From: Candidatus Omnitrophota bacterium | GTDB lineage: Bacteria > Omnitrophota > Gorgyraeia > Zapsychrales > JAKLDJ01 | Reading direction: 5' to 3' | NCBI GenBank assembly: GCA_022703585.1 | Contig: JAKLDJ010000001.1 | Span: forward strand, 118,891 to 182,890 | Length of the DNA: 64,000 bases | Part shown: positions 5,095-31,448 of the stretch, in pieces | Position numbering within the stretch: position 1 is the stretch's first letter | Layout of the letters: each line of letters starts with the position of its first letter | Position numbers and translations under genes: made by a program | The notes under the pieces: generated by a model | Seen by the model: only the letters and a program-made list of their open reading frames with translations | Told to the model about the DNA's origin: nothing | Databases searched by the model: none

Positions 5095-5123
5095 TTGACC
5101 TTTGAAAACAGGTATACTATAAT
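5095..5123 (+). promoter_or_regulatory. sigma70-like promoter (TTGACC-17-TATAAT) for the 5169..6935 gene
   Basis: The plus strand reads TTGACCtttgaaaacaggtatacTATAAT, about 45 nt upstream of the ATG at 5169. Confidence 0.5.
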
Positions 5124-5168: not shown

Positions 5169-6935
5169 ATGCACCGAGAACAAAAACATAAAATCCCCGC
5201 CGCAAAAGACCGAATCGAATTTAAAGACGTCATCCCTCTGATCAAAGACGGGTTAGATAAAAAAGGGACTCTCGATTTTGAAGTTACCGGCCAAAGCATG
5301 ATGCCAGTGTTTATTCCCGGCGATAAAATTCACGGACAACGCGTCGCTTTTGAGCAACTACGCTGCGGCGATATTGTTATTTTTGAGACACAAAACCAGC
5401 TCACCGTCCACCGGATCATCTCCCTGGGAAACCCGTTTTGCGTTATCCTCAAAGGGGACAATGTCGAGAAACCCGATATCCCGATTGCCCGGGATAATAT
5501 AATCGCCAGAATTTCCCGCTTCGAGAGCGGTTCCTTATATATTGACCTGGAAATCCCCCGTTGGCAGAAAACGAACGGCCTGCTGGCTAAGGCCTCCTCC
5601 TGGGAACTTAAAAGGCCTCATTTTCTGACGCGGATAATCTCCGGCACCTTGCGGTTCTTTGCTGCCCTAACCAACCCTGACCTGGCCGATCTCGTTCGTC
5701 GGTGCAACAACAAAGAAACCCTGCAAAAGCTGGAAAAAGAAATAATCCTTAAGTTGTGCGACAAGGAAATAACCGAAACGGATAAGAAATATATCGGTCA
5801 AACCTTACGCCGATACTTAGACTGGGAAGAATTCTTTTCTTTGATTGTTTACAACAACGTCGGGCCGATCGTTTTTCGCAACCTCTCAAAAGTCAATACC
5901 GAAGATATCCCCGCTTGGGTGATTGAAAATCTTAAACAAAGCTACGTGCATAGCTTCTTAAAAACCGCCCCGCTTTTTTATGACCTTTCGCAATTTCTAA
6001 AAGAGATTAAGAAAAATAAAATTCCCGTTATTATCCTTAAAGGCGCTGCCATTTCCGAGAAGATTTACGGCGACACCTCCCTGCGGCCGATGGAGGATAT
6101 CGATATCCTGGTTAAAAAAGAGGATTGGCCGTCTATCCGGGAAACCTTAATCAAGCTCGGCTACATCAATAAGGAGAATCTCGACCTTCTGGATCTTGAA
6201 AATCTCTCTGCCGTTGCGATGGAACGGCACATCTCTTACGAAAACAAGAACGGGACAAAACTTGAGATTAAATTCTATTTATTCTCCCTGGATTTTCCCG
6301 ACTTTGCGCACCCGGAAGAATACTGGAAAGAAGCCGTCCCGCAGAAAATTGCCCAGGTAGAAGTTCTCACCCTTTGCCCCGAAGACCAGTTCCTGTATCT
6401 GGCCAGCCGCCTGATCAACGTCGGGTTCCGGCACCTTTTGTGGTTCTGCGACCTGAAGGAATTTCTGCTCTATTATCCAAAAATTGATTGGGACAGGATT
6501 GAAGAGAAAGCGATAAAACGAAAAGTAACAACCGCGCTGTATTACACGCTGGCCATATTAAAAGAAGAATTTCACGTCAATACCATCCCCGCGGGAACCC
6601 TGGAGAGAATCCGGCCTGCGTATCTTCGAAGGAAACTCTTTGAATGGTTTTTTAATTATAAAAACACCGGTTTTCGACAACCGGCCAAGACCCATCTTTA
6701 CCCCAACCCGCTGATCGCGAATTGTCTTCTTTTGGGGAAATTTTCGCTTAATATCAAAGACATCTTTAAGATGTTACGCTATACGTTAAGGGTGATTTTC
6801 CCGTCCCAAAAGTATATCGCCTACCGTTATAAAAACCGAATTCCAGTGCCTTTTCTGGGGGGATACGGGGCAAGAATTAGGCTGCTTTTTTTAAATCTTT
6901 GGAATATGTTGCGGGCACCCTTCACAAATCCTTAG
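5169..6935 (+). CDS. fusion of an S24/S26-family peptidase domain and an uncharacterised nucleotidyltransferase (NTP_transf_5-like); RiPP-cluster component
   Basis: The N-terminal ~120 aa carry the Ser/Lys dyad motifs of LexA/signal-peptidase-like proteases (TGQSMMPVFIPGDKI ... VILKGDNVEKPD). The C-terminal ~400 aa resemble the 'uncharacterised nucleotidyltransferase' family found in lasso-peptide/HprK-kinase clusters (ILKGAAISEKIYGDTSLRPMEDIDILV). The gene converges on the ABC permease, with a 4-nt end overlap. Confidence 0.75.
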   Translation: MHREQKHKIPAAKDRIEFKDVIPLIKDGLDKKGTLDFEVTGQSMMPVFIPGDKIHGQRVAFEQLRCGDIVIFETQNQLTVHRIISLGNPFCVILKGDNVEKPDIPIARDNIIARISRFESGSLYIDLEIPRWQKTNGLLAKASSWELKRPHFLTRIISGTLRFFAALTNPDLADLVRRCNNKETLQKLEKEIILKLCDKEITETDKKYIGQTLRRYLDWEEFFSLIVYNNVGPIVFRNLSKVNTEDIPAWVIENLKQSYVHSFLKTAPLFYDLSQFLKEIKKNKIPVIILKGAAISEKIYGDTSLRPMEDIDILVKKEDWPSIRETLIKLGYINKENLDLLDLENLSAVAMERHISYENKNGTKLEIKFYLFSLDFPDFAHPEEYWKEAVPQKIAQVEVLTLCPEDQFLYLASRLINVGFRHLLWFCDLKEFLLYYPKIDWDRIEEKAIKRKVTTALYYTLAILKEEFHVNTIPAGTLERIRPAYLRRKLFEWFFNYKNTGFRQPAKTHLYPNPLIANCLLLGKFSLNIKDIFKMLRYTLRVIFPSQKYIAYRYKNRIPVPFLGGYGARIRLLFLNLWNMLRAPFTNP

Positions 6936-7732
6936 GCAAAAACAATTGTCCCTCTTTTTTTAGTATACCGGATAGCCTTCTTTAGCACAAAGAGGCTCAA
7001 GGGAAATAATAAAACTGCGAATCCTGCCAGCACAACCAGAATATCCTGAAGCATCCCGATAGAATATCCCTTTAAGAATGCCAGCCTCAAACCCTCAAAG
7101 ACGTAGGTCGACGGAAGAAACATGGCTAGCTTTTGTAACGGCTGGGGAAAAACCGTTACGGGAAAATAGGCGCCGCCTAAAAGCCACATAAGATTAGTCA
7201 GCGTTCCGGCAAGGGGGTCACCTTTTTTCAGTATAATAATGCACGCGGCGGCACCGATACCCACCGATAAAAACGAGACCGTCGCTAGCAAACCGATCAC
7301 TAAAACCGACAATAAATTAGCCGAACTAAAATCGGCCCCGAAAATGGCCCCTAAGAACAGGAAGAATCCTGCCGCCAGAAAACCCATCATCAGATTATAG
7401 GCACCGAGAGAAAATATAATTCCCATAGTTTTCATCGGTACTGCCAAAAGCGGCTCGAGAGTTCCCGACCAGTGTTCGCGCGATACCGAATTAATCAGCC
7501 CGTTAACCGCAGAATCAAGATAGGATGCCGCTACCAATCCGATCAGGACAAAAGAGAAATAGTTTCCTCCGTATTTTAAAAGATATCCTTCCCCCTTGCC
7601 GCCGATAAGGCCGGAAAGATAATAGAACATGAAGACCGATATGGCGATGCCTACCCAACGGATACAAAAAGAAATTGTATAGCTGGTATCGATTAAGAAA
7701 TCGCGTTTAATGAAAGAAAATATCTTCCGCAT
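6932..7732 (-). CDS. ABC-2 type transporter permease (exporter of the RiPP-like cluster)
   Basis: 266 aa with six predicted TM helices and ABC-2 topology; directly downstream of the ATPase gene. Confidence 0.75.
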   Translation of the reverse strand: MRKIFSFIKRDFLIDTSYTISFCIRWVGIAISVFMFYYLSGLIGGKGEGYLLKYGGNYFSFVLIGLVAASYLDSAVNGLINSVSREHWSGTLEPLLAVPMKTMGIIFSLGAYNLMMGFLAAGFFLFLGAIFGADFSSANLLSVLVIGLLATVSFLSVGIGAAACIIILKKGDPLAGTLTNLMWLLGGAYFPVTVFPQPLQKLAMFLPSTYVFEGLRLAFLKGYSIGMLQDILVVLAGFAVLLFPLSLFVLKKAIRYTKKRGTIVFA

Positions 7733-7755
7733 TTAATAAAATCACTCCCTTTATT

Positions 7756-8583
7756 TCATGTTGCGATAAAAAAATCGTAAATTTCCTTTAAATCCGCGCT
7801 GGGGTCTCCCGCCTGCCTTCTTAACGACTCAAGGGTTCCCTGAGCCTTCAGACGGCCGCGGTCAAGAATCGCTATCTCGTCGGAGATATCAGAAACTTCC
7901 TCTAGAAAATGGCTGGCCATGAGAACTGTTTTATTTCTCTTTTTGACCAGTTCTTCTCTTATAAAGGTTCGCACGCGTTGCGCCATCTGGGGGTCCAAGT
8001 TTTTGGTAGGTTCATCCAAAAGCAAAACCGGGGCGTCATTTAATAAACCCCGCGCCAATGCAAACCTTTGCCTGACGCCTTGTGAATTCTCCTGGAACAT
8101 ATTGTCCAGATATTCCGAGAGTTCAAATACATTCGCCAGATATTTAATTTTCTCTTTCATCTGAGCCTTTGAAAGATTATATAGCGCGGCGTAAAATTCG
8201 AGATTTTGCCTTCCCGTCAGCCGAATATAGAAATTCTTATTTTCTCCCGTCACCAAGCCGATATGGCGCCTTGCCTCTAAACCCTTTTTAACCACATCGA
8301 ATCCATTGATGCTGGCGCTTCCACTATCAGGCAGAATAATCGTCGCCAGGATTCTGATAAGCGTTGTCTTTCCCGAACCGTTGGGGCCGACAAGCCCCAA
8401 GAGTTTTCCCTGCCTTATTGTTAGGTTGATACCATCACAAGCCGTAATGATCTTCTTAAGAGGAAGAGAAAAAATTGCGGACAAACACCAGGGTGGTTTT
8501 GAATAGAAATTCTTATTAAGATGAGAAATCTGAATCGGATATTCCATCAACTCTTTTCCAATAGGTCCCTGACCATTCCGCAT
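7756..8583 (-). CDS. ABC transporter ATP-binding protein
   Basis: Walker A (LVGPNGSGKTT), a Q-loop, the signature motif (NSQGVRQRFALARGL) and Walker B (LLLDEPTKNLD). Confidence 0.85.
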   Translation of the reverse strand: MRNGQGPIGKELMEYPIQISHLNKNFYSKPPWCLSAIFSLPLKKIITACDGINLTIRQGKLLGLVGPNGSGKTTLIRILATIILPDSGSASINGFDVVKKGLEARRHIGLVTGENKNFYIRLTGRQNLEFYAALYNLSKAQMKEKIKYLANVFELSEYLDNMFQENSQGVRQRFALARGLLNDAPVLLLDEPTKNLDPQMAQRVRTFIREELVKKRNKTVLMASHFLEEVSDISDEIAILDRGRLKAQGTLESLRRQAGDPSADLKEIYDFFIAT

Positions 8584-9551
8584 GCCTTATCCAGATTCTG
8601 GTCATTGTAATACAGGCGATAGGCCTTGACTTGATGAAGCAGGCCGCTTAAAACCTTAAAATATTCTCCCGAAACGTGACGGGAACCGGGTTTGATATAC
8701 AAAAATTCCTCCCGGATAAGGCGACTTAAAACAATGTGCTTATTAAGGGTTTGCATCCGAACCTTGGAAGATTTTGCATAGCGGGGAAAGATCAATAAAA
8801 GAGGTTTTGCCTTGCGCCTCATTGCTTTAGGAAAGGCACGGCCGGCATCGATGATGGCCTTGTCGTTTTTCCCTGAAGATTTTAAAATGGCCTTTTTGAA
8901 TTCAGGAAAAAGATAAAGCGAACTTTTCCTGATCTTTGGAAAAGAAGAAAAAGGGGCGCACTGGATACCCGATCCGGACTCACGCAGAATCACTTCGTCA
9001 TCGGCAAGATAATCAAAGCCCATTTTTGATAACGCCATCGCCAAAATACTCTTGCCGCTGCCTGATTTGCCGGTAAAGAGCACTCCCTTATCTCCCAGGG
9101 AAACAAATGAAGAATGAAAAAGGTAAAAGCCATGCAACTGCAACAAACATTTTAACGGTTGGAAGAAAATAAGGTCAAACAAGAGATCTTTTTCAATATC
9201 CGGTGGAGTCGCGACAAAGGAGGTGATGGTATCATGTTGCGGATCCACTGTCGTCCTGATGGTCCGCGGGCCGGCATCGAGATGAAGCTGCCGGTTTTCC
9301 CTAAACTGATTGTAAAATAACGTAAAACCGTGAAAACAGTCGCACCGGGAATGCGGGAGAAGCGAATATCTTGTCCGATGATACGCCCCATGAATAGTTA
9401 GTGCCGCCCTGCTTGCATTCGGGGCAACCGCCGAGGAAGGAAAATGGCGAATAATGAGATCGAATATACCCCGGTCGTTAGAGGTGATATTCAGTTTGAA
9501 ATCCGGAAAATAAAGGGAGGTTTTGAGTTTTGTGGCCATGAATGATATCAA
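8547..9551 (-). CDS. HPr kinase/phosphorylase-related kinase (HprK C-terminal-domain-like; 'HprK-related kinase A/B' type)
   Basis: 334 aa. The P-loop block (FTGKSGSGKSILAMALSKMGFDYLADDEVIL) matches the HprK catalytic-domain consensus GxSGxGKS...L..G..L.ADD. There is no HPr-binding N-terminal domain. The ORF-track start is a TTG; an in-frame ATG lies 4 codons downstream. Confidence 0.75.
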   Translation of the reverse strand: MISFMATKLKTSLYFPDFKLNITSNDRGIFDLIIRHFPSSAVAPNASRAALTIHGAYHRTRYSLLPHSRCDCFHGFTLFYNQFRENRQLHLDAGPRTIRTTVDPQHDTITSFVATPPDIEKDLLFDLIFFQPLKCLLQLHGFYLFHSSFVSLGDKGVLFTGKSGSGKSILAMALSKMGFDYLADDEVILRESGSGIQCAPFSSFPKIRKSSLYLFPEFKKAILKSSGKNDKAIIDAGRAFPKAMRRKAKPLLLIFPRYAKSSKVRMQTLNKHIVLSRLIREEFLYIKPGSRHVSGEYFKVLSGLLHQVKAYRLYYNDQNLDKACGMVRDLLEKS

Positions 9552-9645
9552 AAATCATTGCCCATCCTTGATCAAGAATCTGGCAATCAATCCTGTCAAT
9601 AACCTTTCGCGCGGCACCTGTTGATTTCCAACACAGCAAAACCGT

Positions 9646-9789
9646 CTACGTAAGCAAAGCAGAAGTAGTCGCTGCTGCCATCGCATTCTTTATTTTTAGA
9701 TATTTCACCAGGCACGGTTTTTCATACTCTTTGCTGCTGCGTTTTCGGGACTGCTTTTCGGTCTTTTTATCCTTGCCTTGCTCTTGCAT
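9646..9789 (-). CDS. unannotated 47-aa small ORF between the rSAM and kinase genes; candidate precursor peptide
   Basis: ATG at 9789, preceded by a strong AAGGAG Shine-Dalgarno at 7-nt spacing. The ORF overlaps the last 23 nt of the rSAM gene and encodes MQEQGKDKKTEKQSRKRSSKEYEKPCLVKYLKIKNAMAAATTSALLT (a Lys-rich N-terminus, one Cys, and an Ala/Thr/Ser-rich C-terminus). It is below the ORF-track size cutoff. Confidence 0.25.
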   Translation of the reverse strand: MQEQGKDKKTEKQSRKRSSKEYEKPCLVKYLKIKNAMAAATTSALLT

Positions 9790-10816
9790 AAGCCTGCTCC
9801 TTTTCTCGATGATAATCACTGTATATCTTGTTAATACGGCAGATCTCCAGGGGTTTTGCCTTCAAGTCGCCGTGTTCTAAGAATGCAAGGTCCGGCCTCC
9901 GGCATAGGCAGACGGTTTTATCCCTGCAATCATAGCAGCCGAAATCTTTCTCGGCAAGGCTGTGCAGCCAGTTTAATTTCGGAGAATTGCGCCAAATCTC
10001 GCGCAAATTCTGCTGCCGCAAATCCCCTACTTCTATACGTAATGTCACGGAAACATACACCTTGCCGTTCGAAGAAATATGGATAGAACTCCTGCCCCCG
10101 TCAAGGGTACGACCGCTGCGATACTTTTTATTTCGATTATTAAGGCCCCACGTCAGCAAACGCCGCTTAAAAGCTGATTTTAATTGTTCTTCCGTCGATC
10201 GTAAGCGAAGCGGGCCACGCTCTCCGGAAACCCCCGGCATAATAATAAAATCGGCAATAAAGTCGCATCCTTCTTCTTTTGCCATCTTCTTTATCGAGGT
10301 TAATTCGTGGAAATTATTATTAAACACTATGGTCGCAATAAGAACAGACATACCGTTGTCCCGGCAAAGCCGAATAGCCCTCATTGTCCTTTCAAAAGAA
10401 CCGGGAACCCGGGTAATCGACTCGTGGACTTGGGGACTTGCCCCATAAACACTAAAATGGACACTCAAGGGCTGAATCGCCTTTAACCGTTTGATGTTGT
10501 TTCTGCTAATCATCAGCCCGTTGGTTTTAATATCAAACCCAAACCCCATCTTTCTGGCAAACCTTAAGATATCCCATATGTCTTCACGCAAGAATACTTC
10601 CCCTCCGCTTAAAATGAGTCGTATGCACCCCTCCTCTTTTAGCTGGATAAGGATACCCTTGATTTCTTCAAGGGAGAGCTCATGAGCGCAATCGGTATTC
10701 CTAAGACAATGGATGCAATCTTCATTGCATCGGTTCGTCAGGTCTATCTGGGCATTCCAAAGAATACGCCTGTGCTGCATCCTTAGCCCCAGCTCCCGGA
10801 CATCTCGTAAACGCAT
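9767..10816 (-). CDS. radical SAM/SPASM domain peptide-modifying enzyme (PqqE-like maturase)
   Basis: CxxxCxxC radical-SAM cluster motif (CNEDCIHC) about 25 aa from the N-terminus. The C-terminal Cys-rich SPASM region reads GCYDCRDKTVCLCRRP. Confidence 0.85.
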   Translation of the reverse strand: MRLRDVRELGLRMQHRRILWNAQIDLTNRCNEDCIHCLRNTDCAHELSLEEIKGILIQLKEEGCIRLILSGGEVFLREDIWDILRFARKMGFGFDIKTNGLMISRNNIKRLKAIQPLSVHFSVYGASPQVHESITRVPGSFERTMRAIRLCRDNGMSVLIATIVFNNNFHELTSIKKMAKEEGCDFIADFIIMPGVSGERGPLRLRSTEEQLKSAFKRRLLTWGLNNRNKKYRSGRTLDGGRSSIHISSNGKVYVSVTLRIEVGDLRQQNLREIWRNSPKLNWLHSLAEKDFGCYDCRDKTVCLCRRPDLAFLEHGDLKAKPLEICRINKIYSDYHREKEQAYARARQG

Positions 10817-10818
10817 CT

Positions 10819-12078
10819 TTACGCCGACACCTTTCTTAAGATTCCTGCCCCCTCCAACATAAACATAAAATCATCAACATCTCTCGACACCGTATCGCTG
10901 GAGATATCATACAAGGAAGAAACCTCCGCCTTGGCCTTCTCTAAATCTTGCGTTTCAAGCAGGGCTTGCCAGATTCTTGTCCCTGTGCTGTTGAGGACAA
11001 CGGTGCGAAAATCCTCGCCGACAATCACCTTGATCCGATCTCTGTTTAGAAACCAGGTTACCGGAGAATTGGTAAGCCAATACGACCCGTTATGCCGGAT
11101 AGAGGCTTGTCTTCCGGCAAATTTATTTGACGGAACCCTGCAGGCTTTGTTATTTTTTGTGCCGTAAAAAAATCCTCTTAGCCTCGTCCATGCCCAGCCC
11201 GAAGAATACGCTACCGCTTTTAGAAAGTCTACCAAGGAGAAGATCGCCTCCGCTTTCCTCATCCCCCTTAATACACTGCGGACATTCCAGAGCACAATCG
11301 ATGAGATCTGTCCGACAATGACAGCAAAACTGTCCCTGGAGGTATTCCCTTTAAGGGCATCAAAAAATCCCCAATATTTCCGATAAAGCGTGCAATCCGC
11401 TTTTCCGAATTCAAAATGGTGTTTGATAAATTCAGCCAAGGTCCCGATGTGTTGATGATAGACAACGGCTTTCGGCACAAATCTGATTTCATACCCGGCT
11501 AAAGAAACGCGCCACCCCATTTCCGTATCTTCGCTGGTCACCAAGTCCTCGTCGAAATAACCGATTTCATCCAATATGCTTTTGCGGCAAATGGCATTGG
11601 CCGTAATCACGCGCGGCAAATCTTCCTCGCAGAGACCCTCAATGCTGATTTGCTGAGAAAGAAGCGCCTTGGTTTGCGCATACCGCTCAAAAATAGTCTC
11701 CGGCCTGTGGTCCAGAATGTTTCCTCCGCAAAAAGCGATGCCGTCATCCGATAGAATTTCTTCGTATAGAATCGTAAGCCAATCAGCGGTGACGATACAA
11801 TCGGAATCAGTAAAAGCAATAAAAACGGCTTTTGCGTTCTTTATCCCGCAATTTCTCGCCCAAGCCCTTCCTCGATTGGGCTCAAAAAGATAGGTGACCG
11901 GATATCTTAAGATGATTTCTTTAGTGCGGTCAGTGGAATGATTATCGACAACGATAATTTCCCTATCCTGCTCCGGAAAATCCAATCGCATCAAGGAATC
12001 CAGGCACGCCGGAAGCTTTTCCTCGCCGTTATAGACCACCACAACAATAGAAACTTTTGGCTTGCTATCTGATGCCAT
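10819..12078 (-). CDS. family-2 glycosyltransferase fused to a C-terminal PqqD-like (RRE) domain
   Basis: The N-terminus is a GT2 fold (VSIVVVVYNGEEKLPACLDSLMRLDF ... IIVVDNHSTDRT ... FTDSDC). The C-terminal ~90 aa (WFLNRDRIKVIVGEDFRTVVLNSTGTRIWQALLETQDLEKAKAEVSSLYDISSDTVSRDVDDFMFMLEGAGILRK) has the PqqD/RiPP-recognition-element signature. Confidence 0.8.
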   Translation of the reverse strand: MASDSKPKVSIVVVVYNGEEKLPACLDSLMRLDFPEQDREIIVVDNHSTDRTKEIILRYPVTYLFEPNRGRAWARNCGIKNAKAVFIAFTDSDCIVTADWLTILYEEILSDDGIAFCGGNILDHRPETIFERYAQTKALLSQQISIEGLCEEDLPRVITANAICRKSILDEIGYFDEDLVTSEDTEMGWRVSLAGYEIRFVPKAVVYHQHIGTLAEFIKHHFEFGKADCTLYRKYWGFFDALKGNTSRDSFAVIVGQISSIVLWNVRSVLRGMRKAEAIFSLVDFLKAVAYSSGWAWTRLRGFFYGTKNNKACRVPSNKFAGRQASIRHNGSYWLTNSPVTWFLNRDRIKVIVGEDFRTVVLNSTGTRIWQALLETQDLEKAKAEVSSLYDISSDTVSRDVDDFMFMLEGAGILRKVSA

Positions 12079-12139
12079 CTCTCGACCCTTGCTTTAAAAA
12101 TACCTTTAAAACCGGTATTGATTGCAATCAGTAGTTCTT

Positions 12140-12424
12140 TTAAGCCTTTGAAACAATAAGGCCTTCCGTTTCCAGGTCTTTTATAAGGCTACGAATATCC
12201 TGGCTGGCTTTTTTGTAGTCAAGGCCATACTCCTCGCGGATCTTCTCAATAATTTGCTCACCGGTCTTGTTTTCATTTAAAAGCGACCAAGCGAAGGACC
12301 CTGTTTTGTTAAGGCTATAATACCGTCCGGAATCGAGATCGAGTATCACGACCTCTCCGTCGATAGTACGCCAGACTATTTTTTCAGTGTCGATACGGTA
12401 ACGCTTTGATTGTTTTTTATTCAT
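12140..12424 (-). CDS. PqqD family peptide-modification chaperone (RiPP recognition element)
   Basis: 94 aa (WRTIDGEVVILDLDSGRYYSLNKTGSFAWSLLNENKTGEQIIEKIREEYGLDYKKASQDIRSLIKDLETEGLI) is a typical stand-alone PqqD. It has no Shine-Dalgarno of its own; its ATG overlaps the stop of a 25-aa upstream ORF. Confidence 0.75.
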   Translation of the reverse strand: MNKKQSKRYRIDTEKIVWRTIDGEVVILDLDSGRYYSLNKTGSFAWSLLNENKTGEQIIEKIREEYGLDYKKASQDIRSLIKDLETEGLIVSKA

Positions 12425-12494
12425 GGGATGGAAAACGATATACGGCCGGTATTTGGGATCGCACGATAATATAGCCTCCGCGAAACAAATTCAT
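12417..12494 (-). CDS. 25-aa upstream ORF translationally coupled to pqqD-like gene; possible leader/precursor peptide
   Basis: The ORF is ATG(12494)...TAA(12417) and encodes MNLFRGGYIIVRSQIPAVYRFPSHE. Its stop overlaps the PqqD start in a CATGAATAA arrangement, which is classic translational coupling. Its own SD is weak, and a TTGACA box lies 21 nt upstream. Confidence 0.15.
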   Translation of the reverse strand: MNLFRGGYIIVRSQIPAVYRFPSHE

Positions 12495-12639
12495 TTTATC
12501 ATACCCTACTTTCATGTCAACAGACTAAAGCGCCCAAGAATAGAAAAAACTCGCCTCACAGCAGCGCATTCCGCCCGCCCATAAAAAAAGGGATTATATT
12601 TTCATATAATCCCCTTCAAGCAGATTGAGACAACTGCAG

Positions 12640-13122
12640 TTACTTAAGAGCCAGTTCCGGTTCCTTTTTGGTAATCGTCACTTCCGGATGTTTGGCAAGA
12701 TTGGTCTTCTTGACCGTCACCGTATGATAGTTGGTGTCATTCTTGTAATAATCAAGCCCGCGCTCGATATACTGTTCATCAATTTTCTTGGGCGCAAAGA
12801 ATTTTCTGCACATATCTCTGGCTGTCTGCGGGTCAAACGCCTTACAGCAGTAGACATCGACCGAAATATAATCCTTAGGCGTCAGCGTATGAATAACAAT
12901 CGAGCTTTCGATCAACGGTGCCCAGCCCGAGAGACCGGCTTTGTCCGGAAAACGTTTCTCGTCGCTGCGAAATATATTCGGCGGTGCCTGCTTTTCCATC
13001 CCCAGCTTATCAACCATCTCATCTAAGAACTGGTAACATAAGGTCAAGTCATCGCATGCACCGGTTTTGCAGCCGTAGAGATCCAACAAAAGCTGATAAC
13101 CAAATACTTCATTCTTCATCAT
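12640..13122 (-). CDS. speH: S-adenosylmethionine decarboxylase proenzyme, small pyruvoyl-dependent type
   Basis: Conserved motifs LDLYGC and the processing/active-site block SGWAPLIESSIVIHTLTPKDY (Glu-Ser-Ser self-cleavage site). The protein is 160 aa, with a C-terminal extension of about 30 aa relative to typical 125-aa SpeH. It is preferred over the antisense ORF 12625..13026. Confidence 0.7.
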   Translation of the reverse strand: MMKNEVFGYQLLLDLYGCKTGACDDLTLCYQFLDEMVDKLGMEKQAPPNIFRSDEKRFPDKAGLSGWAPLIESSIVIHTLTPKDYISVDVYCCKAFDPQTARDMCRKFFAPKKIDEQYIERGLDYYKNDTNYHTVTVKKTNLAKHPEVTITKKEPELALK

Positions 13123-13296: not shown

Positions 13297-13494
13297 TTAG
13301 CGAATGGATACGAGCAAAAAAACTAAAACAACAATAAATACAATAAAAAACCATACCACTTTCCGGTTTGCGTACCGAATCCGGCTTAAAAATCCGTTCC
13401 CGGCCCTCTCCAAGCTCTCTCCGCAGAAATGGCAAAGCAGGGCATCGTCATCGCTGATATAATTTCCGCAGGCAGGGCACTTGTATTCAGCCAT
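13297..13494 (-). CDS. small zinc-ribbon membrane protein
   Basis: 65 aa with CPACG...CHFCG (C4 zinc ribbon) followed by a C-terminal TM helix. There is a strong SD (AAGGAG) 6 nt upstream of the ATG. Confidence 0.5.
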   Translation of the reverse strand: MAEYKCPACGNYISDDDALLCHFCGESLERAGNGFLSRIRYANRKVVWFFIVFIVVLVFLLVSIR

Positions 13495-20797: not shown

Positions 20798-21802
20798 TTA
20801 ATGTTTAGGGCCACTGCAGGATTCGCGCGTGACTAAGTCGGGAGACAAGATGATCTTTGCGGGCGTGGTCTTTTTACCGGCCACAATAGCATTAAGGTAC
20901 CTGACGGCTTCTTCGGCCATCTTAAAAAGAGGCTGACGGATTGTGGTTAAACCAATCGGCCCATACAAGGCAGAAGGATTATCGTCAAAACCGATAATCG
21001 AAATATCCTGTGGCACTTTAAGCCTTTTTTCCATAACCACTTCAATGGCCTCCAGCGCCATGTCATCGCTGGCGGCAAATATGGCCGTGGGAGGGTTTTT
21101 AAGCGACAGGAATTCTTCGACAGCGCTACGGGCACAGCGGCGGGAATAGTCCCCCTTATAAATATATTCGTCCCGCAGGGTGATTCCTTTCTTTTCAAGA
21201 GTTTCCTTAAATCCGTCCAGGCGGTGAGCCCCGGCCTGGGTGTTGACATTTCCGGTTATAGTGGCAATGCGTTTATGCCCAAGGCCGACTAAATATTCCG
21301 TCGCGATCTTAGCGCCCTTGATGTTATCAACGGCAATATAATTGACATCTAAATCCTCAACGATATTGTTGATAACAATGCAGGGGACACCTTCCTCAAG
21401 GACTTCCTGGACCTGTTTCTTATTCTCGATAATGTCGGCGAAAATAACCCCGCCCATGGCATTGGTATTAACCGGGCTATTGCCGTCGCTGATATGAAAA
21501 ACTAAATCCAGGTGCAGGGTCTCACAGGCATGGCCGACACCGCGGATAAGCTCGATGGCGTAAAAGGAATGGAACAAGCCCGGATAGCCGGGCATCACTA
21601 AGCCTACGGAATTGTTAAGGCCGCTGGCCAGCCGCTGGGCAGCAAGATTGGGTTTAAATTTTAGATGAGCAACAGCCTCTTCGACCTTAATGCGGTTTTG
21701 CTTGCTAACGGTAGGAACGTTATTGATAACGCGGGATACAGTGGTAATCGAAACCCCGGCTCGGCGGGCAACGTCTTCGATGCTGATTCTTTTTTTAACC
21801 AC
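20798..21802 (-). CDS. LacI-family transcriptional regulator
   Basis: N-terminal HTH (SIEDVARRAGVSITTVSRVINN) and a periplasmic-binding-protein-like sugar-binding core. Confidence 0.9.
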   Translation of the reverse strand: MVKKRISIEDVARRAGVSITTVSRVINNVPTVSKQNRIKVEEAVAHLKFKPNLAAQRLASGLNNSVGLVMPGYPGLFHSFYAIELIRGVGHACETLHLDLVFHISDGNSPVNTNAMGGVIFADIIENKKQVQEVLEEGVPCIVINNIVEDLDVNYIAVDNIKGAKIATEYLVGLGHKRIATITGNVNTQAGAHRLDGFKETLEKKGITLRDEYIYKGDYSRRCARSAVEEFLSLKNPPTAIFAASDDMALEAIEVVMEKRLKVPQDISIIGFDDNPSALYGPIGLTTIRQPLFKMAEEAVRYLNAIVAGKKTTPAKIILSPDLVTRESCSGPKH

Positions 21803-21814
21803 AGTCTTACAACC

Positions 21815-23077
21815 TTACTTTACGATATCACCGGCTTTAATCTTGGCGCCTTTTTGCTTGATATCGGCCGCGCAAATATCTTTTCTGACCTGGATGACTT
21901 CGACACTGGCAATAAATTTCGTTCCCCGATAAACACTCAGCTTATCGCCGATACGCACCCCGGCATTTTCTCCTCGGTCAATAACAATAAAATTATTTTC
22001 CGTATTTATACTCACGACACGCCCCTCAATACCAACGGCGCTGGCTGAGGGTTGAGAAACCGCGGCAGCAGGATTAGGCGCGCTAACGATAATGGGGGGA
22101 AGCTCGACCTCCTTGGAGGAGGAAGCCGATGTCTTTATCCGTTGGTCTAAGTTCTTTTTGATATCAAGGACTTCGTCGATTCTATTCTGGATAATGCTTT
22201 CGGTCTCGGAAAGTTTTCGCTCGACGGTATCCCGCTCTTCGCCCAGTTTCGTGATATTCTTCTCTAAGGCAATTTTAGCGGCCGATAATTCTTTGACCTG
22301 GGCGCGCAGATTTAAGTTTTCTTCCTTGAACTTATCCAAACGGTCCGCGATATAACGTTTGTCATTCTTCTCTTTGGCGAGTTCAATCGAGAGGCTGTTG
22401 GCTAAGTCCTCGCTATACTTGATCTTCCGCTCGATTTCTTCTTTGTCGTTCTTTAGCTGTCCCAACTCTAATTCCAAGTCGGAACTCTTTTTCTTAAGCT
22501 CCTCGACCTCGGTGGAGCCGCTCGACAGCTTGCCCTGCAGCTCTTCGATTTTTAATTCCAGCGAAGCTTTTTCCTTTAAGACATTCGCCCAGTATTTTTC
22601 ATTGCTTAAACTTTCCGGAAGCGCGATTGTCTCGGCCTGCTGTTCGCCAGCGGCTTGCTCCTTGGGCTGCTCCGGGACCTCCTTTGAAACCGCCGCTTGC
22701 TGCTGTAGCTGCGCCAACTCCTGGAGTTTCTCCTGGAGCTTGCTCATCAAATCATCGCGTTCTTTTCTAAGCTGATCAACCTGCCCCTTCCAGTCATCAC
22801 GTTCACCTGTTAACGTGACCACCTGGGTGTTGATATCGTCGAGTTGTTTTTTAATCTTGGCTTGGATGGATTGAGCTTCTTGGAGTTGCGTATCTAATTT
22901 TTTATTATCTTCGGTGAGCTTTTTTTCGCTTGCCTGGTAGGTTTCGATTGTTTTATTCTTATCGCTGACAGTCCGCTCGAGTTTTGTCTTATCATTAAGG
23001 AGGGAGACGCACAAAAATACGCTTGCAACAATAAGCACAAACAGTATGACGATAATCAGCTTGCCGGTTTTCGACAT
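21815..23077 (-). CDS. membrane-anchored coiled-coil protein with a C-terminal beta-rich domain
   Basis: 420 aa with an N-terminal TM helix, about 280 aa of heptad-rich coiled coil (K/E/L-rich), and a conserved-looking ~75-aa C-terminal domain (GRVVSINTENNFIVIDRGENAGVRIGDKLSVYRG...). It lies 12 nt upstream of lacI, so is probably co-transcribed. Confidence 0.6.
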   Translation of the reverse strand: MSKTGKLIIVILFVLIVASVFLCVSLLNDKTKLERTVSDKNKTIETYQASEKKLTEDNKKLDTQLQEAQSIQAKIKKQLDDINTQVVTLTGERDDWKGQVDQLRKERDDLMSKLQEKLQELAQLQQQAAVSKEVPEQPKEQAAGEQQAETIALPESLSNEKYWANVLKEKASLELKIEELQGKLSSGSTEVEELKKKSSDLELELGQLKNDKEEIERKIKYSEDLANSLSIELAKEKNDKRYIADRLDKFKEENLNLRAQVKELSAAKIALEKNITKLGEERDTVERKLSETESIIQNRIDEVLDIKKNLDQRIKTSASSSKEVELPPIIVSAPNPAAAVSQPSASAVGIEGRVVSINTENNFIVIDRGENAGVRIGDKLSVYRGTKFIASVEVIQVRKDICAADIKQKGAKIKAGDIVK

Positions 23078-23259
23078 CCCTTTTTCTCCTTTTGAGAATG
23101 ACGCAAAATAACTATATCAAACTATTTACGGCAAAACAAGAAAAATTAGATATTTTTTGACTCTTTTATTTAATATTACTATATTTTGGAAAAAATATAA
23201 GAGTTATTTATGATATTTGTAAATCCAACTGCGCAGGAGAATTGGGAGAGAATGGAACA

Positions 23260-23299
23260 GGGCAGCCCCGCACCCGGTTCACCGGGTGCGGGGCTGCCC
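23260..23299 (-). terminator. perfect 18-bp GC-rich inverted repeat (GGGCAGCCCCGCACCCGG ttca CCGGGTGCGGGGCTGCCC) downstream of the lipoprotein gene
   Basis: An exact palindrome 42 nt after the stop of 23342..24028. A U-rich tail is not obvious on the minus transcript; on the plus strand an A-tract follows. It is a likely transcription terminator or protein-binding palindrome. Confidence 0.45.
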
Positions 23300-23341
23300 T
23301 TAATCAAAAAAATCAATTACGGCAAATATTACGCCGCGTCT

Positions 23342-24028
23342 TTATTCGTACCTTAAATCATCAAGATAAAACGTACAACCCTCGGGATTGACATCCACGT
23401 TGGTCGACCAGGCAAAACCACCGCTGACATAAGAGAGGTCTTTGCCCCGCAGGTCGATTGAATACTCCCTCCACTGGGGCGTTAAAATAACCGGGCCCAC
23501 CATCGCGGAATCGGAGTCGGGATAGTCACCGCTGACTCCACCCATTTTAAACTCCTCGATACGTTCTCCGCCTTTCTCGCCCTTAGCCCAAAACGTAAGT
23601 TTCGTGGCTCCGGTTAAATCAAAACCGCCTTTACGGGATCCCCAATTATTCGCCGGATTCTGCCAATACATCCCCGCCCACTTTGCTCCCTGCTTGGAAC
23701 AAACAGTATCATAAACGATTTTGATACAGTTCTTTCCTGAATGGCAATTTTGCGACCAGATATCATCGATATTCAGGCATTTGCCGTCCGGCATAAAACC
23801 CGATGGAATAAAATGGTTATCGGGTGACCCCTTATCGGCAAAAATCGAGAACGGACGAAAGTCTCCCGTCCCCGCGTCTTTCTTTGTTGCCAACTTCTGC
23901 TCCTGAGCACCGGAGACAGACTGTTCCGCCGCCTTGGCAGAAACTGCCTGCTGTTGGCTTGATGCCTTACCGCATCCCACCGCAAAAATAAAGCATCCGG
24001 CCACCGCATAGAGAATTATACGTTTCAT
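23342..24028 (-). CDS. lipoprotein with a putative carbohydrate-binding beta-sandwich domain
   Basis: Signal peptide with a lipobox (FAVGC), followed by a Ser/Gln-rich linker and then a ~170-aa domain with aromatic-rich beta-strand character. Confidence 0.6.
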   Translation of the reverse strand: MKRIILYAVAGCFIFAVGCGKASSQQQAVSAKAAEQSVSGAQEQKLATKKDAGTGDFRPFSIFADKGSPDNHFIPSGFMPDGKCLNIDDIWSQNCHSGKNCIKIVYDTVCSKQGAKWAGMYWQNPANNWGSRKGGFDLTGATKLTFWAKGEKGGERIEEFKMGGVSGDYPDSDSAMVGPVILTPQWREYSIDLRGKDLSYVSGGFAWSTNVDVNPEGCTFYLDDLRYE

Positions 24029-24226
24029 TTTTTTAAAATCACCTTTCCTTGGGCCTTTACACCACTAAGAAAATAGTGCGGATTCTAAATCCGGAGAACA
24101 AAGGCCAATACCGCGCAACTTCAGTTGCGCAGTACTGGGCCACTACCCGGTATTAACCGCCTCTATTGCAATTCATTTTACAAAAGTCAATAAAATCGTA
24201 TTTACCTTGATGCCGTTAAGCTTATC

Positions 24227-25114
24227 TTACTCTGCTGTTTTTAATTCTGCTATTTGCCTTTGAGCAGCATCCACCGGTTTCCAGAACCAACCCTGAGGAT
24301 CCCAGCATTGGGCAAACGAAAAATCGTTAACCACTTTTTCATAAGCCTCTTTGGCCTCTGCGTTCTTGCCGGCCTTCTTTAATGCCTCGCCCTTGATGAA
24401 GAGGCATGTTCCCACGTCATTGAGGGCCCAGAACCCGAATACCTTGTCTTTCTCGACCGGATATTCATTGGCCGCTTTCAAAGTCGCCTGCATTTCTTTG
24501 GCCTTGGCTTCATAAAGCTCAAGACATTTGCCGGTATAGGCTAAGACAGCGTCGAGGTCATTGTTGGTTAAAGCAGCCCACGCCTTGGTGGCCAGCGTCG
24601 ATGAGGTATAATCACCGAAATCCAGCGTTGAGCCTGATGCGATCGCCGCCAGTTTTTCTTTTGCAGCCTCGGCAGGTTTCCAAAACCAGCCCTTAACGTC
24701 CCAGCATTGGCCGAAAGAATATTCGTTAATCAGTTTGTTGAAAACTTCCTTGGCCTCATCATTCATCTTGGCCTTGCGATAGGCCTCGCCCTGAATAAAA
24801 AGGCAGGTGGCCACATCGTTAAGAGCCCAGTAGCTGAAAATCTTATCGTTAGCACCCGAGGCATACTCGCTAAGGCCTGCCTGCATTTTCTTCGCCTGTT
24901 CACCGTAAAGATCCATACATTTGTTGGTGTAGGCTAAGACCGCCTCAATGTCCCCTTTTTCTAACGCCGCCCATGCCTTACCGGTCAAGGTCACGGAACG
25001 AAAATCCCCGAAATCATAAACCGCCGCAGAGGCCGGCTGCGCCAACGTGACTGCCGGACACAGACCAATGGTTACCGCCGCCAGCAAAACCATAAACATC
25101 GTCCTTCTCATCAC
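24227..25114 (-). CDS. secreted protein made of two tandem copies of a novel ~125-aa domain
   Basis: Signal peptide, then two collinear repeats (…KAWAALEKGDIEAVLAYTNKCMDLYGEQAKKMQ…WALNDVATCLFIQGEAYRK…QCWDVKGWFWKP and …KAWAALTNNDLDAVLAYTGKCLELYEAKAKEMQ…WALNDVGTCLFIKGEALKK…QCWDPQGWFWKP). Confidence 0.65.
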   Translation of the reverse strand: MMRRTMFMVLLAAVTIGLCPAVTLAQPASAAVYDFGDFRSVTLTGKAWAALEKGDIEAVLAYTNKCMDLYGEQAKKMQAGLSEYASGANDKIFSYWALNDVATCLFIQGEAYRKAKMNDEAKEVFNKLINEYSFGQCWDVKGWFWKPAEAAKEKLAAIASGSTLDFGDYTSSTLATKAWAALTNNDLDAVLAYTGKCLELYEAKAKEMQATLKAANEYPVEKDKVFGFWALNDVGTCLFIKGEALKKAGKNAEAKEAYEKVVNDFSFAQCWDPQGWFWKPVDAAQRQIAELKTAE

Positions 25115-25189
25115 TTCCTCCTTTTGATTGTTTTATTGCTGTGGTTTGCTTTTGTTTTTACCCGTTAACTTCGCCTAAACAATTTTCTC

Positions 25190-27553
25190 CTAAGACTGAT
25201 TCCAAAGCCTTTTATATAAATAATAGCTTTGCCTCAATTGCCTTAAGAAGGGACTGCTCTTGCCGTCTCCCTGGCCGCAGAGGCCAAACCATTCCTCATA
25301 CATATAGCCGTCGGGAAACGGGCCTATAGCGCCCGCAGTTCTATCGTGATTGGAGGGCTCGTAATTCTTCCACCACTCGTCAATCCATTCAAAAACAATG
25401 CCTCCGATGGCATTGCCCACGCCCTCCGCACTCTTAGCGGAATTGGACTCGATATCCAGCCAGTTGCCTAAATGATAATCAGCCTGGGCCTTCTCGGCCT
25501 CTTCACGCGTCAAGTTAGTCGCATACCCGGGACAACCGAATTCCGAAATAAAGGCGGGCTTTCCGGTGGCGTCAAACACCTGCTCCCAGAAAGAACCAAA
25601 TCCGTAATCACCCCGGTAGGCATTCGCCGCATAGACATCCACATCGGGACAATATTTGGCAAATATATCCAAGTATAGCATATCGCCGTTACACATGGCA
25701 ACAGGATGATTGGGGTCAATAGATTTGATCATCAAGGCCACTTCATTAACAAATTTATAATAGGCCTCGGGTTTTTTATCCGCGTTACAGGCAACACCGT
25801 AATTATTTTCATTGCCCAAAAGCCACATGAGAACATACGGCTCGTCCTTGTATTCCATAACCATCTTCCTGACCGATTCCATCATGGCAGAGCGATGTTG
25901 CGGATTTTCGTAATCGGTTCCTTCGTACCAGCTTGCGCCCGAACCCAAAGCATACTTTCCCAAGAAGTCCGCCAGGATAACACGGATACCGTATTCCTTA
26001 TACATAGCTCGCAAGAGATTCTTATCAGGTTCAAACGGCTGATGATAAAAACGGATGGTGTTGGCCCCCAATTCCTCGAGCAGCCTGAAGTCACCTACCA
26101 CCAATTCATTCACATCTTGGATGTTATTTAAGTTCCCGTCAACCCAAGAATCGTACGGCCCGTCAGCCTTGCCGTTATGATTGGTATCTTCCGTCATCCA
26201 ATTAACCAACGTTCCCTTGTCCGGGCTCTGCCCTACCTTGGTAGGGGCATAGGTAATACCTTTGATTATATACGGTTTCCCGCCGACAAGCATCTGCCAG
26301 TGGCCATTTTCATATTGAACCAGACGCACTTCGCCTTGCCCTAAGCTTCTTTTGATTTTCCCCAAGTTAACACGCTGCTTATTTAAATTCAATCGTTCCG
26401 CCACGTGATCCATAAAACTTTTCTTCTTGAGGATTCCCGGCGAAGTAATCACAATATCATTGGCGATATCGTTATCAAAACCTTTAATGACCTGGATCTT
26501 GGCTCCCTTAAATTGCAGATTCAACTCCGGATGCAAGCGAACCAGGTGCCGGATCTTGGCGACAGCAGCCTGACCAGGATACCAGGGCGTACGCCAGTAG
26601 GTCCGGCCGGTGGCATTGGGAAAATGCACGATAATTGCCCGATAAGCCTTTAAGGCCTCATAATACATCTTGGCTTTTTCAAAGATTAATCCGATATAAA
26701 AAAGCTTAACTCCCCAGGGTTCGGGAGCCGTCGCCCATTTATAAAAAGCCGCCTCCAAATCCGCGCTGTGCACAAAATCCCAGTGGCTGCCCTCCAGCCT
26801 TCCTTCTTTTCTGACCCGATTATAACCGGGGTCTTTTAAAACCGAACCCGTATTCGGATAAATCCCTTCGCCGATCGCCTCGGATAATCCTTTGGGATCA
26901 GTAGCCTCATAATGATACTCTTTAGTGCCCGCCCCGATAAATCTCCCGTACTTCGCGTAATCGACAACGTCTTCTTTTCCCTTAAAATGAAGCTGGGGCA
27001 AGGTCTTTTTTTCTTCCTTGGTAACGACAACAGGTTTTTCCTCCGCTTTCTTACCGTTCAGCATGTCAATACTCGCCTGGCTTTTCTCCGCCACCGACCA
27101 AAACCAGCCGCGCGGATCCCAAGCCTGCGACCATTTATATTCATCAATGATTTTTTGGAAAATCTGTTTGGCCTCTTCGCTGCGGCCGTTTTGCATCAGG
27201 GCTTCGGCTTTAATAAATAAGCACGTGGCCACATTGTTTAACGATTGATAATCGTCTTCCTGGCCGGGCATGGGAAAAGTCCCTAAGCTTGCCTGTTGGT
27301 TCTTGGCCTCATTGTCGTAGGTATCAACACATTTTTGGGTAATCGATAGAACCTTTTCCAAATCGTTTTTCCCTGAGGCTTCCCAGGCTTGACGGACGAA
27401 TTCTTTGGAAGGAATGTCGGAAGGAACATCTTGGGCAAGGGCATAGGAGTTGGGGTTTAGGGCATAGAAGAAAAAGGCCAGGGCCAACATTTTCATTGTT
27501 AAGCCCCAGCCCCTAGACCCTAATCCCTGAACCATAGACCCTAAACTTCTCAT
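25190..27553 (-). CDS. secreted glycoside hydrolase, clan GH-A TIM barrel (GH2/GH5-like), with an N-terminal copy of the novel domain found in 24227..25114
   Basis: 787 aa with a signal peptide. The N-terminal ~130 aa match the repeat of the upstream gene (CLFIKAEALMQNG…QAWDPRGWFWS). The catalytic core carries an NE acid/base motif (LLGNENNYG) and a nucleophile motif (FISEFGCPGY), as in GH2/GH5 families. Confidence 0.7.
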   Translation of the reverse strand: MRSLGSMVQGLGSRGWGLTMKMLALAFFFYALNPNSYALAQDVPSDIPSKEFVRQAWEASGKNDLEKVLSITQKCVDTYDNEAKNQQASLGTFPMPGQEDDYQSLNNVATCLFIKAEALMQNGRSEEAKQIFQKIIDEYKWSQAWDPRGWFWSVAEKSQASIDMLNGKKAEEKPVVVTKEEKKTLPQLHFKGKEDVVDYAKYGRFIGAGTKEYHYEATDPKGLSEAIGEGIYPNTGSVLKDPGYNRVRKEGRLEGSHWDFVHSADLEAAFYKWATAPEPWGVKLFYIGLIFEKAKMYYEALKAYRAIIVHFPNATGRTYWRTPWYPGQAAVAKIRHLVRLHPELNLQFKGAKIQVIKGFDNDIANDIVITSPGILKKKSFMDHVAERLNLNKQRVNLGKIKRSLGQGEVRLVQYENGHWQMLVGGKPYIIKGITYAPTKVGQSPDKGTLVNWMTEDTNHNGKADGPYDSWVDGNLNNIQDVNELVVGDFRLLEELGANTIRFYHQPFEPDKNLLRAMYKEYGIRVILADFLGKYALGSGASWYEGTDYENPQHRSAMMESVRKMVMEYKDEPYVLMWLLGNENNYGVACNADKKPEAYYKFVNEVALMIKSIDPNHPVAMCNGDMLYLDIFAKYCPDVDVYAANAYRGDYGFGSFWEQVFDATGKPAFISEFGCPGYATNLTREEAEKAQADYHLGNWLDIESNSAKSAEGVGNAIGGIVFEWIDEWWKNYEPSNHDRTAGAIGPFPDGYMYEEWFGLCGQGDGKSSPFLRQLRQSYYLYKRLWNQS

Positions 27554-27747
27554 CCCGCAAATCGCTCCTTAAGGAAAGACTTTTATGATGTATTTTCGAA
27601 TGCTCAAGTATACACCAATAATGGGGCAGAGGCAACATTTAGACTATCATTCATGCCGGGCGTTCAACCCGCCAAAATTCCCCGTCCGAAAGGACAGGAT
27701 TTGCTTAAAGTTGCTAAATTACCCCCATCTTCATTAGATAAATAATA

Positions 27748-27776
27748 TTGTACCCACCGGGTTTGTTTGTTATAAT
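27748..27776 (+). promoter_or_regulatory. sigma70-like promoter (TTGTAC-17-TATAAT) for the MFS transporter gene
   Basis: The plus strand reads TTGTACccaccgggtttgtttgtTATAAT, about 50 nt upstream of the ATG at 27828, which is preceded by a GGAGGG SD. Confidence 0.45.
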
Positions 27777-27827
27777 ACGAAACTCATAATCATTCAAGTA
27801 AAATATTATTTACCAGGGAGGGAATGA

Positions 27828-29408: not shown

Positions 29409-29447
29409 AGGCTTTCGTTCTGTTTATCCCTGGAGCTTAAGGAAAAC

Positions 29448-30389: not shown

Positions 30390-30417
30390 ATTAAAACAAA
30401 ACGGTTCCTTTAAAAAG

Positions 30418-30450
30418 AAACCCTGTTTCTCGTCGAGAAACAGGGTTTTT
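30418..30450. terminator. bidirectional rho-independent terminator between convergent genes
   Basis: 14-bp perfect stem AAACCCTGTTTCTC/GAGAAACAGGGTTT with a 3-nt loop, flanked by A-run and T-run, so a U-tract follows the hairpin on both strands. Confidence 0.65.
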
Positions 30451-30468
30451 AACAAAGTGCCGTTTTCG

Positions 30469-31445: not shown

Positions 31446-31448
31446 CAC

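Follow-up and report, generated by a model that had tools for sequence, protein, structure and literature searches.

A probable linear polyphosphorylated peptide-type pathway in a compact operon of Candidatus Omnitrophota

Linear polyphosphorylated peptides (LPPs), described from the lppAKBSDN genes of Paenibacillus alginolyticus, were defined starting from an archaeal-type signal peptidase (SpI) in Bacilli, only about one third of whose genes are linked to lasso cyclase or B2 genes, and were stated to be restricted to the Bacillota (Popov et al., Nat Commun 2026, PMC13381572). Here we describe a gene cluster at positions 5169-12494 of a 64-kb stretch of DNA (the window) from a metagenome-assembled genome (MAG) of Candidatus Omnitrophota. 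The cluster is probably a self-contained, Omnitrophota variant of an LPP-type pathway for a peptide that is made ribosomally and then modified post-translationally (RiPP).

The core of an LPP cluster comprises a TIGR02228 SpI, a discrete PqqD-type RiPP recognition element (RRE), an HprK-like kinase typed as TIGR04249, TIGR04352 or TIGR04355, an NTP_transf_5 protein and an MsbA-like exporter, with no macrolactam cyclase; the core domains are given in Supplementary Data 2 of that study (PMC13381572). The precursors have 35-200 amino acids (aa); their leaders follow the consensus YxxPxVLxHQxIxFETxxS, their C-termini vary, and the core of LppA has 45 aa (PMC13381572). The kinase LppK places several phosphates on Ser3 of the core and does not accept Thr, and the peptidase LppS cuts the leader only when LppB presents it, the S29A, H68A and D93A variants being inactive (PMC13381572). 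LppN was inactive in the heterologous host, the final product and function of the LPPs are still unknown, and in Bacilli the clusters sit within capsule loci (PMC13381572).

The Omnitrophota cluster shares with these systems a discrete, lasso-like RRE that has both leader-fixing residues, Asn and Asp, the YxxPx[L/V] part of the leader, hypervariable cores, a leader peptidase of the SipW/archaeal type with a Ser/His/Asp triad, an NTP_transf_5 domain, ATP-binding cassette (ABC) export and the lack of a macrolactam cyclase. It also has a kinase of the ScmC/HprK_rel_A type, with scores that are sub-threshold for the NCBIfam kinase equivalogs. Because the core matches domain for domain and the catalytic and leader-binding residues are conserved, an LPP-type mechanism is the best supported. 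The first-pass annotation of this DNA, which was aware of no described product class with this combination of genes, has in this respect been made outdated by the LPPs of Popov et al. (2026, PMC13381572), which have the same core. Apart from its phylum, the cluster differs from the Bacillota systems in that peptidase and transferase form one polypeptide, which in some loci has an additional methyltransferase domain at its N-terminus, and in that the operon itself contains an obligatory fusion of a family 2 glycosyltransferase (GT2) with an RRE and, usually, a radical S-adenosylmethionine (rSAM) enzyme.

Conservation and enzymes of the cluster

Domains were assigned by Pfam and NCBIfam scans of the open reading frames (ORFs) of the window. 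The scans reproduced the gene list of the first-pass annotation, ORF by ORF and domain call by domain call, and support its description of a RiPP-type operon with two RREs. A search of 5.8 billion clustered proteins with the kinase gave 13 close relatives at E <= 9e-63 and two distant matches; fetched loci bear labels of the form L002, with L004 listed together with L003, and L016 is the neighbourhood of a weak precursor match in Mesorhizobium. The gene set and its order recur in nine other distinct loci, in which the kinases are 37-64% identical to that of the window (BLASTP) and the named records are Omnitrophota or 'Planctomycetales' MAGs. Recurrence in nine loci with kinases only this similar makes the arrangement more than a matter of chance, so that the neighbourhood to which the first-pass annotation had tied its prediction is a conserved one. 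Where the contig covers them, the PqqD protein, the GT2-RRE fusion, the kinase, the ABC ATPase and the ABC-2 permease are constant, and the peptidase-transferase fusion is present in eight of the nine loci that cover its position (the window counted), L009 being the one without it.

A filter-free census with a hidden Markov model, over 1.84 billion representatives of which 25,466 belong to the kinase superfamily, found about 12 members (50% identity) at >=280 bits, nearly all of them full-length. Collection scans added three loci from genome contigs and two, including one duplicate, from metagenome contigs. Given how few new loci were added, the family is rare.

The discrete PqqD protein (12140-12424, minus strand, 94 aa; Pfam PqqD, E = 1.7e-18) scores 62.8 bits against the NCBIfam model lasso_PqqD_Strm, for which the cut-off is 70, and its best solved relatives are the RREs of lasso and LPP systems: TbiB1 (2e-12), LppB (9x8z; 5e-7, 36% identity), PbaB1 (4e-6) and TfuB1 (2e-4). 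In LppB, N33 and D70 make hydrogen bonds to the YxxP motif, at its Pro kink and at its Tyr (Popov et al. 2026, PMC13381572). Asn39 and Asp76 of the window protein align with these two residues, and both are kept in the other RREs of the family that were examined as well as in the RRE fused to the window GT2. The GT2 protein (10819-12078, minus strand, 419 aa; Glycos_transf_2, 2e-30) has the motifs DSD (aa 91) and SED (aa 182), and its PqqD domain occupies aa 360-414 (4.8e-9). Fusions of glycosyltransferases with RREs have previously been noted bioinformatically only; this one was found in every related locus that covers its region.

Convergent to the operon, on the plus strand, 5169-6935 encodes a protein of 588 aa in which a SipW/Sec11-type signal-peptidase domain (aa ~19-130) is followed by an NTP_transf_5 domain (PF14907, aa 218-466) and, towards the C-terminus, by a helical region that is conserved; in L003 and L007 there is an extra N-terminal methyltransferase domain. 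The peptidase domain matches Peptidase_S24/signal peptidase I at aa 19-119 and TIGR02228 at 2.9e-12, and contains the boxes SMxP, GD, HR and GDN...D. Among 12 aligned homologues, Ser43, His81 and Asp97 are nearly invariant (at least 90%) and Asp103 is invariant. Ser43, His81 and Asp103, the predicted catalytic triad, align with the catalytic S29, H68 and D93 of LppS (pairwise E = 2e-9, 22% identity). A hydropathy scan of the fusion protein found no hydrophobic or transmembrane segment, which indicates a cytoplasmic SipW/Sec11-type serine peptidase. The protease had been introduced as 'LexA/signal-peptidase-like'; its signal-peptidase character stands, whereas the LexA likeness is not borne out.

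The NTP_transf_5 match is strong (7e-50, 170 bits, cut-off 31), and in the transferase motif RPMxDxD both D310 and D312 are invariant. Sequence searches of the PDB with the fusion protein gave no match, and only fold comparison was informative: in the AlphaFold model (pLDDT 82) the transferase domain resembles ANT(2''), the same structural relative that was reported for PsmN, which adds a hexose to phospho-Ser.

The kinase gene (ORF 8547-9551, probable gene 8547-9539, minus strand; Hpr_kinase_C, 1.2e-7) belongs to a family in which the P-loop GxSGxGK (G161, S163, G166 and K167) and D184 are invariant, and D185 nearly so, across 13 sequences. Its homologues carry PF27840 ScmC and PF07475 (precomputed matches only). 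Against TIGR04352 HprK_rel_A the window protein reaches 56 bits (cut-off 200), the family also matches TIGR04355 below its cut-off, and the NCBIfam matches of the next tier of relatives are sub-threshold hits to HprK_rel_A/B only. Thus, while the first-pass assignment of the transferase to PF14907 is confirmed, that of the kinase to the 'HprK-related kinase' models of TIGRFAMs stays below threshold.

A reassignment of this protein to the bona fide HPr kinases, which the first-pass annotation had allowed for, finds no footing in either sequence or model. TIGR00679 gives 32.5 bits (cut-off 240) and aligns only residues 145-192, that is, 48 residues around the P-loop; a phmmer search of the PDB gave E = 2e-3, again over the P-loop only; and the full-length modelled fold resembles PEPCK, with an N-terminal half that aligns with PEPCK and not with HprK/P. 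On these grounds the protein is a P-loop member of the PEPCK/HprK superfamily and not a true HPr kinase.

Export is assigned to a DrrA-like ABC ATPase (ORF 7756-8583, probable gene 7756-8547, minus strand; ABC_tran, 1.6e-27; drrA, 217 bits) and an ABC-2 permease (6932-7732, minus strand, 266 aa; ABC2_membrane, 8e-10, with DrrB-family matches), in which a hydropathy scan found about six hydrophobic segments. This split DrrAB-like exporter differs from the MsbA-like type of the LPP clusters, in which the transmembrane and nucleotide-binding domains are fused; no ABC_membrane-type gene was found in any Omnitrophota locus.

A family of short precursor peptides

The precursor gene of the window (9646-9789, minus strand, 47 aa) begins with an ATG downstream of an AAGGAG-like site, overlaps the stop of the rSAM gene by 23 nucleotides (nt), and is annotated as a gene in the source assembly. 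The predicted leader is MQEQGKDKKTEKQSRKRSSKEYEKPCLVKYLKIKNAMA, followed by the core AATTSALLT. Motif scans found homologues in every related locus, and these scans and a profile search together gave 17 distinct precursors. Fifteen were recovered by the profile search at E <= 4e-10, six of them from outside the query alignment (E = 1e-11 to 4e-10).

Across the family the peptides have 43-51 aa, in contrast to the 35-200 aa of LPP precursors. Their leaders, of 34-38 aa, are very basic (31% Lys/Arg) and share an invariant YxxP within the near-invariant motif Y[EQ][KR]Px[LVF]xK[YH], mostly YEKPxLxKY and in the window YEKPCL. The HQxIxFETxxS part of the LPP leader consensus is lacking, whereas YxxPx[L/V/F] and the variable core are present. 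The cores are hypervariable and only 5-16 aa long, compared with 45 in LppA. Over the 17 peptides they consist of 31% Ser/Thr and 40% Ala/Gly/Val, are nearly devoid of Lys/Arg, and contain about 1% Cys and about 1% aromatic residues. No core is without Ser or Thr, although that of L002, VGTAT, has Thr only. Since the C-termini vary (T, A, L, I, S, E or G), the target of phosphorylation is not a conserved C-terminal Ser, unlike in the paeninodin/pseudomycoidin type.

We infer that the leader is cut 17 residues past the Tyr, which would give a product of nine residues in the window. With the cut placed there, position -1 is small and position -3 hydrophobic in all 17 peptides, and 7 of 17 have Thr at -2. 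Lasso leaders show the same spacing, with Y at -17, P at -14, L at -12 and T at -2.

Several further observations concern the precursor family. In L005 (1958-4963) and L013 (5998-9107) the rSAM/SPASM gene and the precursor downstream of it are tandemly duplicated, with rSAM copies that are 84% and 77% identical, respectively; L005 has two identical precursors and L013 three with differing cores. In L009 (1721-1804) the precursor homologue, which reads ...RYEKPCVIKYPKRRKS, ends straight after the leader and has no obvious start codon; this locus, without rSAM and peptidase-transferase genes, may hold a cluster that is in decay. In Mesorhizobium sp. CU2 (L016, 9674-10233) three adjacent ORFs of 30-33 aa, annotated 'putative RiPP precursor', have a YEKPxL motif and a short Ser/Gly-rich tail as in the Omnitrophota peptides, e.g. 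MKKTYEKPTLIKKDRLSAVTANGSGSKIPT, with a profile E of ~9 that is not significant. Weak profile matches of this kind (E ~8-10), including Mesorhizobium P0049 and P0048, have neighbourhoods without a kinase, an RRE or a transferase, and were set aside as unrelated or too distant.

Proposed pathway and its alternatives

From the observed gene content, conservation of motifs and active sites, synteny and precursor family, we infer the following chemical steps and their order. The lasso-B1-like PqqD protein, together with the RRE that is part of the GT2 protein, would capture the 47-aa precursor by its YEKPCL motif. With the leader still attached, the PEPCK/HprK-like kinase would phosphorylate, possibly several times over, Ser/Thr near the start of the core, and the RRE-tethered GT2 would add a sugar. 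The PF14907 domain would then elaborate the phosphate, for which the hexose placed on phospho-Ser by PsmN is a precedent, and the rSAM enzyme may contribute a lineage-specific tailoring of the peptide or the sugar. Finally, the cytoplasmic SipW-type domain would remove the leader about 17 residues past the Tyr, and the ABC-2 transporter would export the nine-residue product. A phosphorylated and/or glycosylated peptide that is proteolytically released and exported, as predicted in the first-pass annotation, thus remains the best prediction in light of the LPP core match and the conserved residues, and is probably what the cluster makes.

If so, the enzymatic logic of the LPPs extends to the Omnitrophota, a largely uncultured phylum, in the form of a compact and apparently self-contained operon, and the ever-present GT2-RRE could supply the partner activity for which the authors of the LPP study had postulated a place outside their cluster. 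With so compact an operon, a fused peptidase-transferase and a GT2-RRE inside the cluster, open questions of LPP maturation come within reach of direct tests, and mass spectrometry of the product should be eased by the very short cores. The locus would also illustrate the re-use of a lasso-type leader/RRE module with unrelated processing enzymes.

A number of observations weigh against this reading. The window RRE is closer to the lasso protein TbiB1 than to LppB, and the peptidase is only 22% identical to LppS; the LPP-like architecture may therefore have been assembled independently. The target of phosphorylation may differ and could, for example, be a sugar, since LppK rejects Thr and the L002 core has Thr but no Ser. 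The exporter is of the ABC-2 and not the MsbA-like type, YxxPx[L/V] is all that the leader has in common with the LPP consensus, and one locus, L009, does without the peptidase-transferase gene. Lastly, the chemistry is deduced by analysis, and the reference LPP system itself has no known final product.

These points leave some room for an alternative, which we hold to be possible but tentative, that the products are not diverged LPPs but a distinct class of Ser/Thr-rich peptides of 5-16 residues bearing a phosphodiester-linked glycan, and that the pathway arose independently out of a lasso-type leader/RRE module. The kinase, the RRE-tethered GT2 and the PF14907 domain would together make the glycan, with editing by the rSAM enzyme as an option. 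Were this the case, the fusion and the in-operon GT2-RRE would reveal both the 'missing partner' and the true function of PF14907, which cannot be observed in the LPP model system.

The role of the rSAM enzyme bears on a further explanation, namely that the locus is an rSAM-defined RiPP pathway of the SynChlorMet or GeoRSP type, in which the rSAM enzyme makes a crosslink or an epimerization and the kinase, transferase and glycosyltransferase are accessory. The SynChlorMet (ScmC/D/E/F) and HprK-related kinase A/B systems, which are uncharacterised, share with the Omnitrophota cluster an HprK-like P-loop protein, a PqqD protein and an rSAM/SPASM enzyme. The rSAM protein of the window (9767-10816, minus strand, 349 aa; Radical_SAM, 1.4e-22; SPASM, 7e-7) indeed has ScmE, ScmF and GeoRSP models among its sub-threshold NCBIfam matches, the PqqD protein matches ScmD, and the kinases carry the Pfam domain 'ScmC'. 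Moreover, the precursor gene overlaps the rSAM gene, and the two are co-duplicated in L005 and L013. The scores, however, lie far below the equivalog cut-offs (ScmE 95 bits against 400, ScmF 65 against 400, ScmD 35 against 100), the protein reaches no NCBIfam equivalog (the best, NirJ2, gives 132 bits against a cut-off of 500), and the peptidase-transferase fusion and the GT2-RRE are extra to the SynChlorMet gene set.

The rSAM is also the least conserved component, in contrast to the constant PqqD, GT2-RRE, kinase and exporter. The window, L002, L005 (two copies), L008 and L013 (two copies) have a SPASM-type enzyme; L003, L007 and L008 have a B12-binding rSAM unrelated to it, and L009 has no rSAM at all. 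The window thus has a single rSAM in place of the ScmE and ScmF pair, and one that is dispensable across the family. An RRE is missing from the window protein, which among solved structures comes closest to the sugar-nucleoside decarboxylase BlsE (8e-13). It has the CX3CX2C motif at C30/C34/C37 and further conserved cysteines at C64, C294, C297, C303, C305 and C326, six that are probably, as judged from the sequence, too few for a full two-cluster SPASM domain. With an interchangeable rSAM and with cores nearly without Cys and aromatic residues, and thus short of the usual donors for thioether or C-C crosslinks, the 'rSAM-crosslinked' product foreseen by the first-pass annotation is doubtful. 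The rSAM is an accessory and not the class-defining enzyme, and a SynChlorMet or GeoRSP-type pathway is accordingly unlikely.

We give very little weight to the possibility that the locus serves the export of an envelope glycoconjugate or polysaccharide, with a GT2, a Wzm/Wzt-like ABC-2 transporter and a nucleotidyltransferase, and that the presence of the small ORF is incidental. Loci of this kind typically have ABC-2 exporters and GT2 enzymes, the exporter and GT2 proteins here also give KpsM- and EPS-type NCBIfam matches, L008 has extra GT2 and GT4 genes, and the LPP clusters of Bacilli lie inside capsule loci. An incidental ORF is nevertheless hard to reconcile with two RREs that keep their leader-binding residues, with a YxxP small ORF in every locus, and with a peptidase domain that by its conserved residues appears catalytically intact.

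Still less probable is a route like that of mycofactocin or PQQ, in which a small glycosylated cofactor would derive from the C-terminus of the peptide. Mycofactocin operons likewise combine a chaperone of the PqqD type with an rSAM/SPASM enzyme and a GT2 of the MftF kind; MftF is the best NCBIfam match of the window GT2 (148.9 bits, 2e-43), the rSAM aligns full-length to MftC (83 bits, 2e-23), and the cores are very short. Both matches, though, fall below the cut-offs of 280 and 265 bits, there are no MftD/MftE-like genes, the hypervariable cores have no conserved C-terminal residues of the MftA type, and the kinase, the transferase, the signal-peptidase domain and the dedicated exporter are without counterpart in mycofactocin operons.

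The least probable explanation is a split lasso pathway with its cyclase and B2 protease encoded elsewhere in the genome: the B1-type RRE with lasso B1 proteins as best solved relatives, the YxxPxL leader at lasso spacing (Y-17, P-14, L-12, often T-2), the ABC exporter, and the pairing of PF14907 with an HprK-like kinase acting on the precursor are all as in paeninodin/pseudomycoidin clusters, but neither an Asn-synthetase-like cyclase (C) nor a transglutaminase-like B2 cysteine protease is found anywhere in the 64-kb window or the related loci, which extends their absence as first noted, the cores, down to 5-7 residues and in 16 of 17 cases without an acidic residue at positions 7-9, are unable to form a lasso ring, and a dedicated serine peptidase fills the role of leader peptidase as it does in the LPPs.

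Transcription units and neighbouring genes

Both transcription units of the cluster are preceded by strong sigma-70-like sites, identified by consensus match only. On the minus strand, 5' of pqqD, 12493-12520 reads TTGACA-16-TAAAAT with an extended -10 TG (11/12), directly downstream of a terminator-like hairpin that follows the S-adenosylmethionine (AdoMet) decarboxylase gene; on the plus strand, 5' of the peptidase-transferase gene, 5095-5123 reads TTGACC-17-TATAAT (11/12). The 4-nt overlap between the convergent permease and peptidase-transferase genes, as first annotated, is correct (6932-6935). For the kinase the probable start is ATG 9539 (330 aa), which agrees with the NCBI annotation and with all homologues; for the ATPase, judging from its homologues, it is ATG 8547 (263 aa), which would overlap the kinase stop by 1 nt (TGATG). 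An attenuator was sought in the 95-nt spacer between the precursor and the kinase, where the predicted fold was no better than that of shuffled sequence (z = -0.58), and the idea was given up.

The window cluster is flanked by housekeeping genes, AdoMet decarboxylase (12640-13122, minus strand) and birA. In six distinct loci (seven fetched), among them the window, L002, L003, L007, L010 and L011, the former is the gene directly upstream of the cluster, and birA lies downstream in most loci; the chromosomal position of the cluster is therefore fixed in this lineage, whereas in the clade of L005 and L013 it is found at another site. On account of its adjacency, AdoMet decarboxylase was considered as a member of the cluster and provisionally rejected. 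It is 78-99% identical across loci, compared with ~34-85% for the cluster enzymes (if the close relative L002 is set aside, mostly 37-57%). A terminator-like hairpin follows the gene in the window, and the L013 locus does without it altogether.

Accessory genes occur in some of the relatives. In addition to its glycosyltransferases, L008 encodes a SAM methyltransferase, and the two distant kinases (~30% identity) adjoin glycosyltransferase and PF14907 genes, one of them also an ABC exporter. Just upstream of AdoMet decarboxylase, L003/L004 (2073-5951) have genes for an arylsulfotransferase, CysD/CysN-like sulfate activation and a phosphodiesterase; the sulfotransferase recalls those of paeninodin-type lasso clusters. 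In the window, 13297-13494 (minus strand) is an ORF of 65 aa with two CxxC pairs (zinc-ribbon-like), a hydrophobic C-terminus and no Pfam match at E <= 1e-5, and the same position in L002 holds its equivalent.

Farther from the cluster, a single minus-strand ORF at 41147-63943 encodes 7,598 aa, in which Pfam recognizes only a response-regulator receiver domain (aa 764-847) and a TPR block near aa 3,890-4,170. Another minus-strand gene, at 33882-37340 (1,152 aa), combines CBM_4_9 with a C-terminal pretoxin-HINT/Vint domain in an architecture like that of polymorphic toxins, and adjoins a GH94 phosphorylase gene (37574-40000) and a sugar ABC uptake/LacI block (20798-33834).

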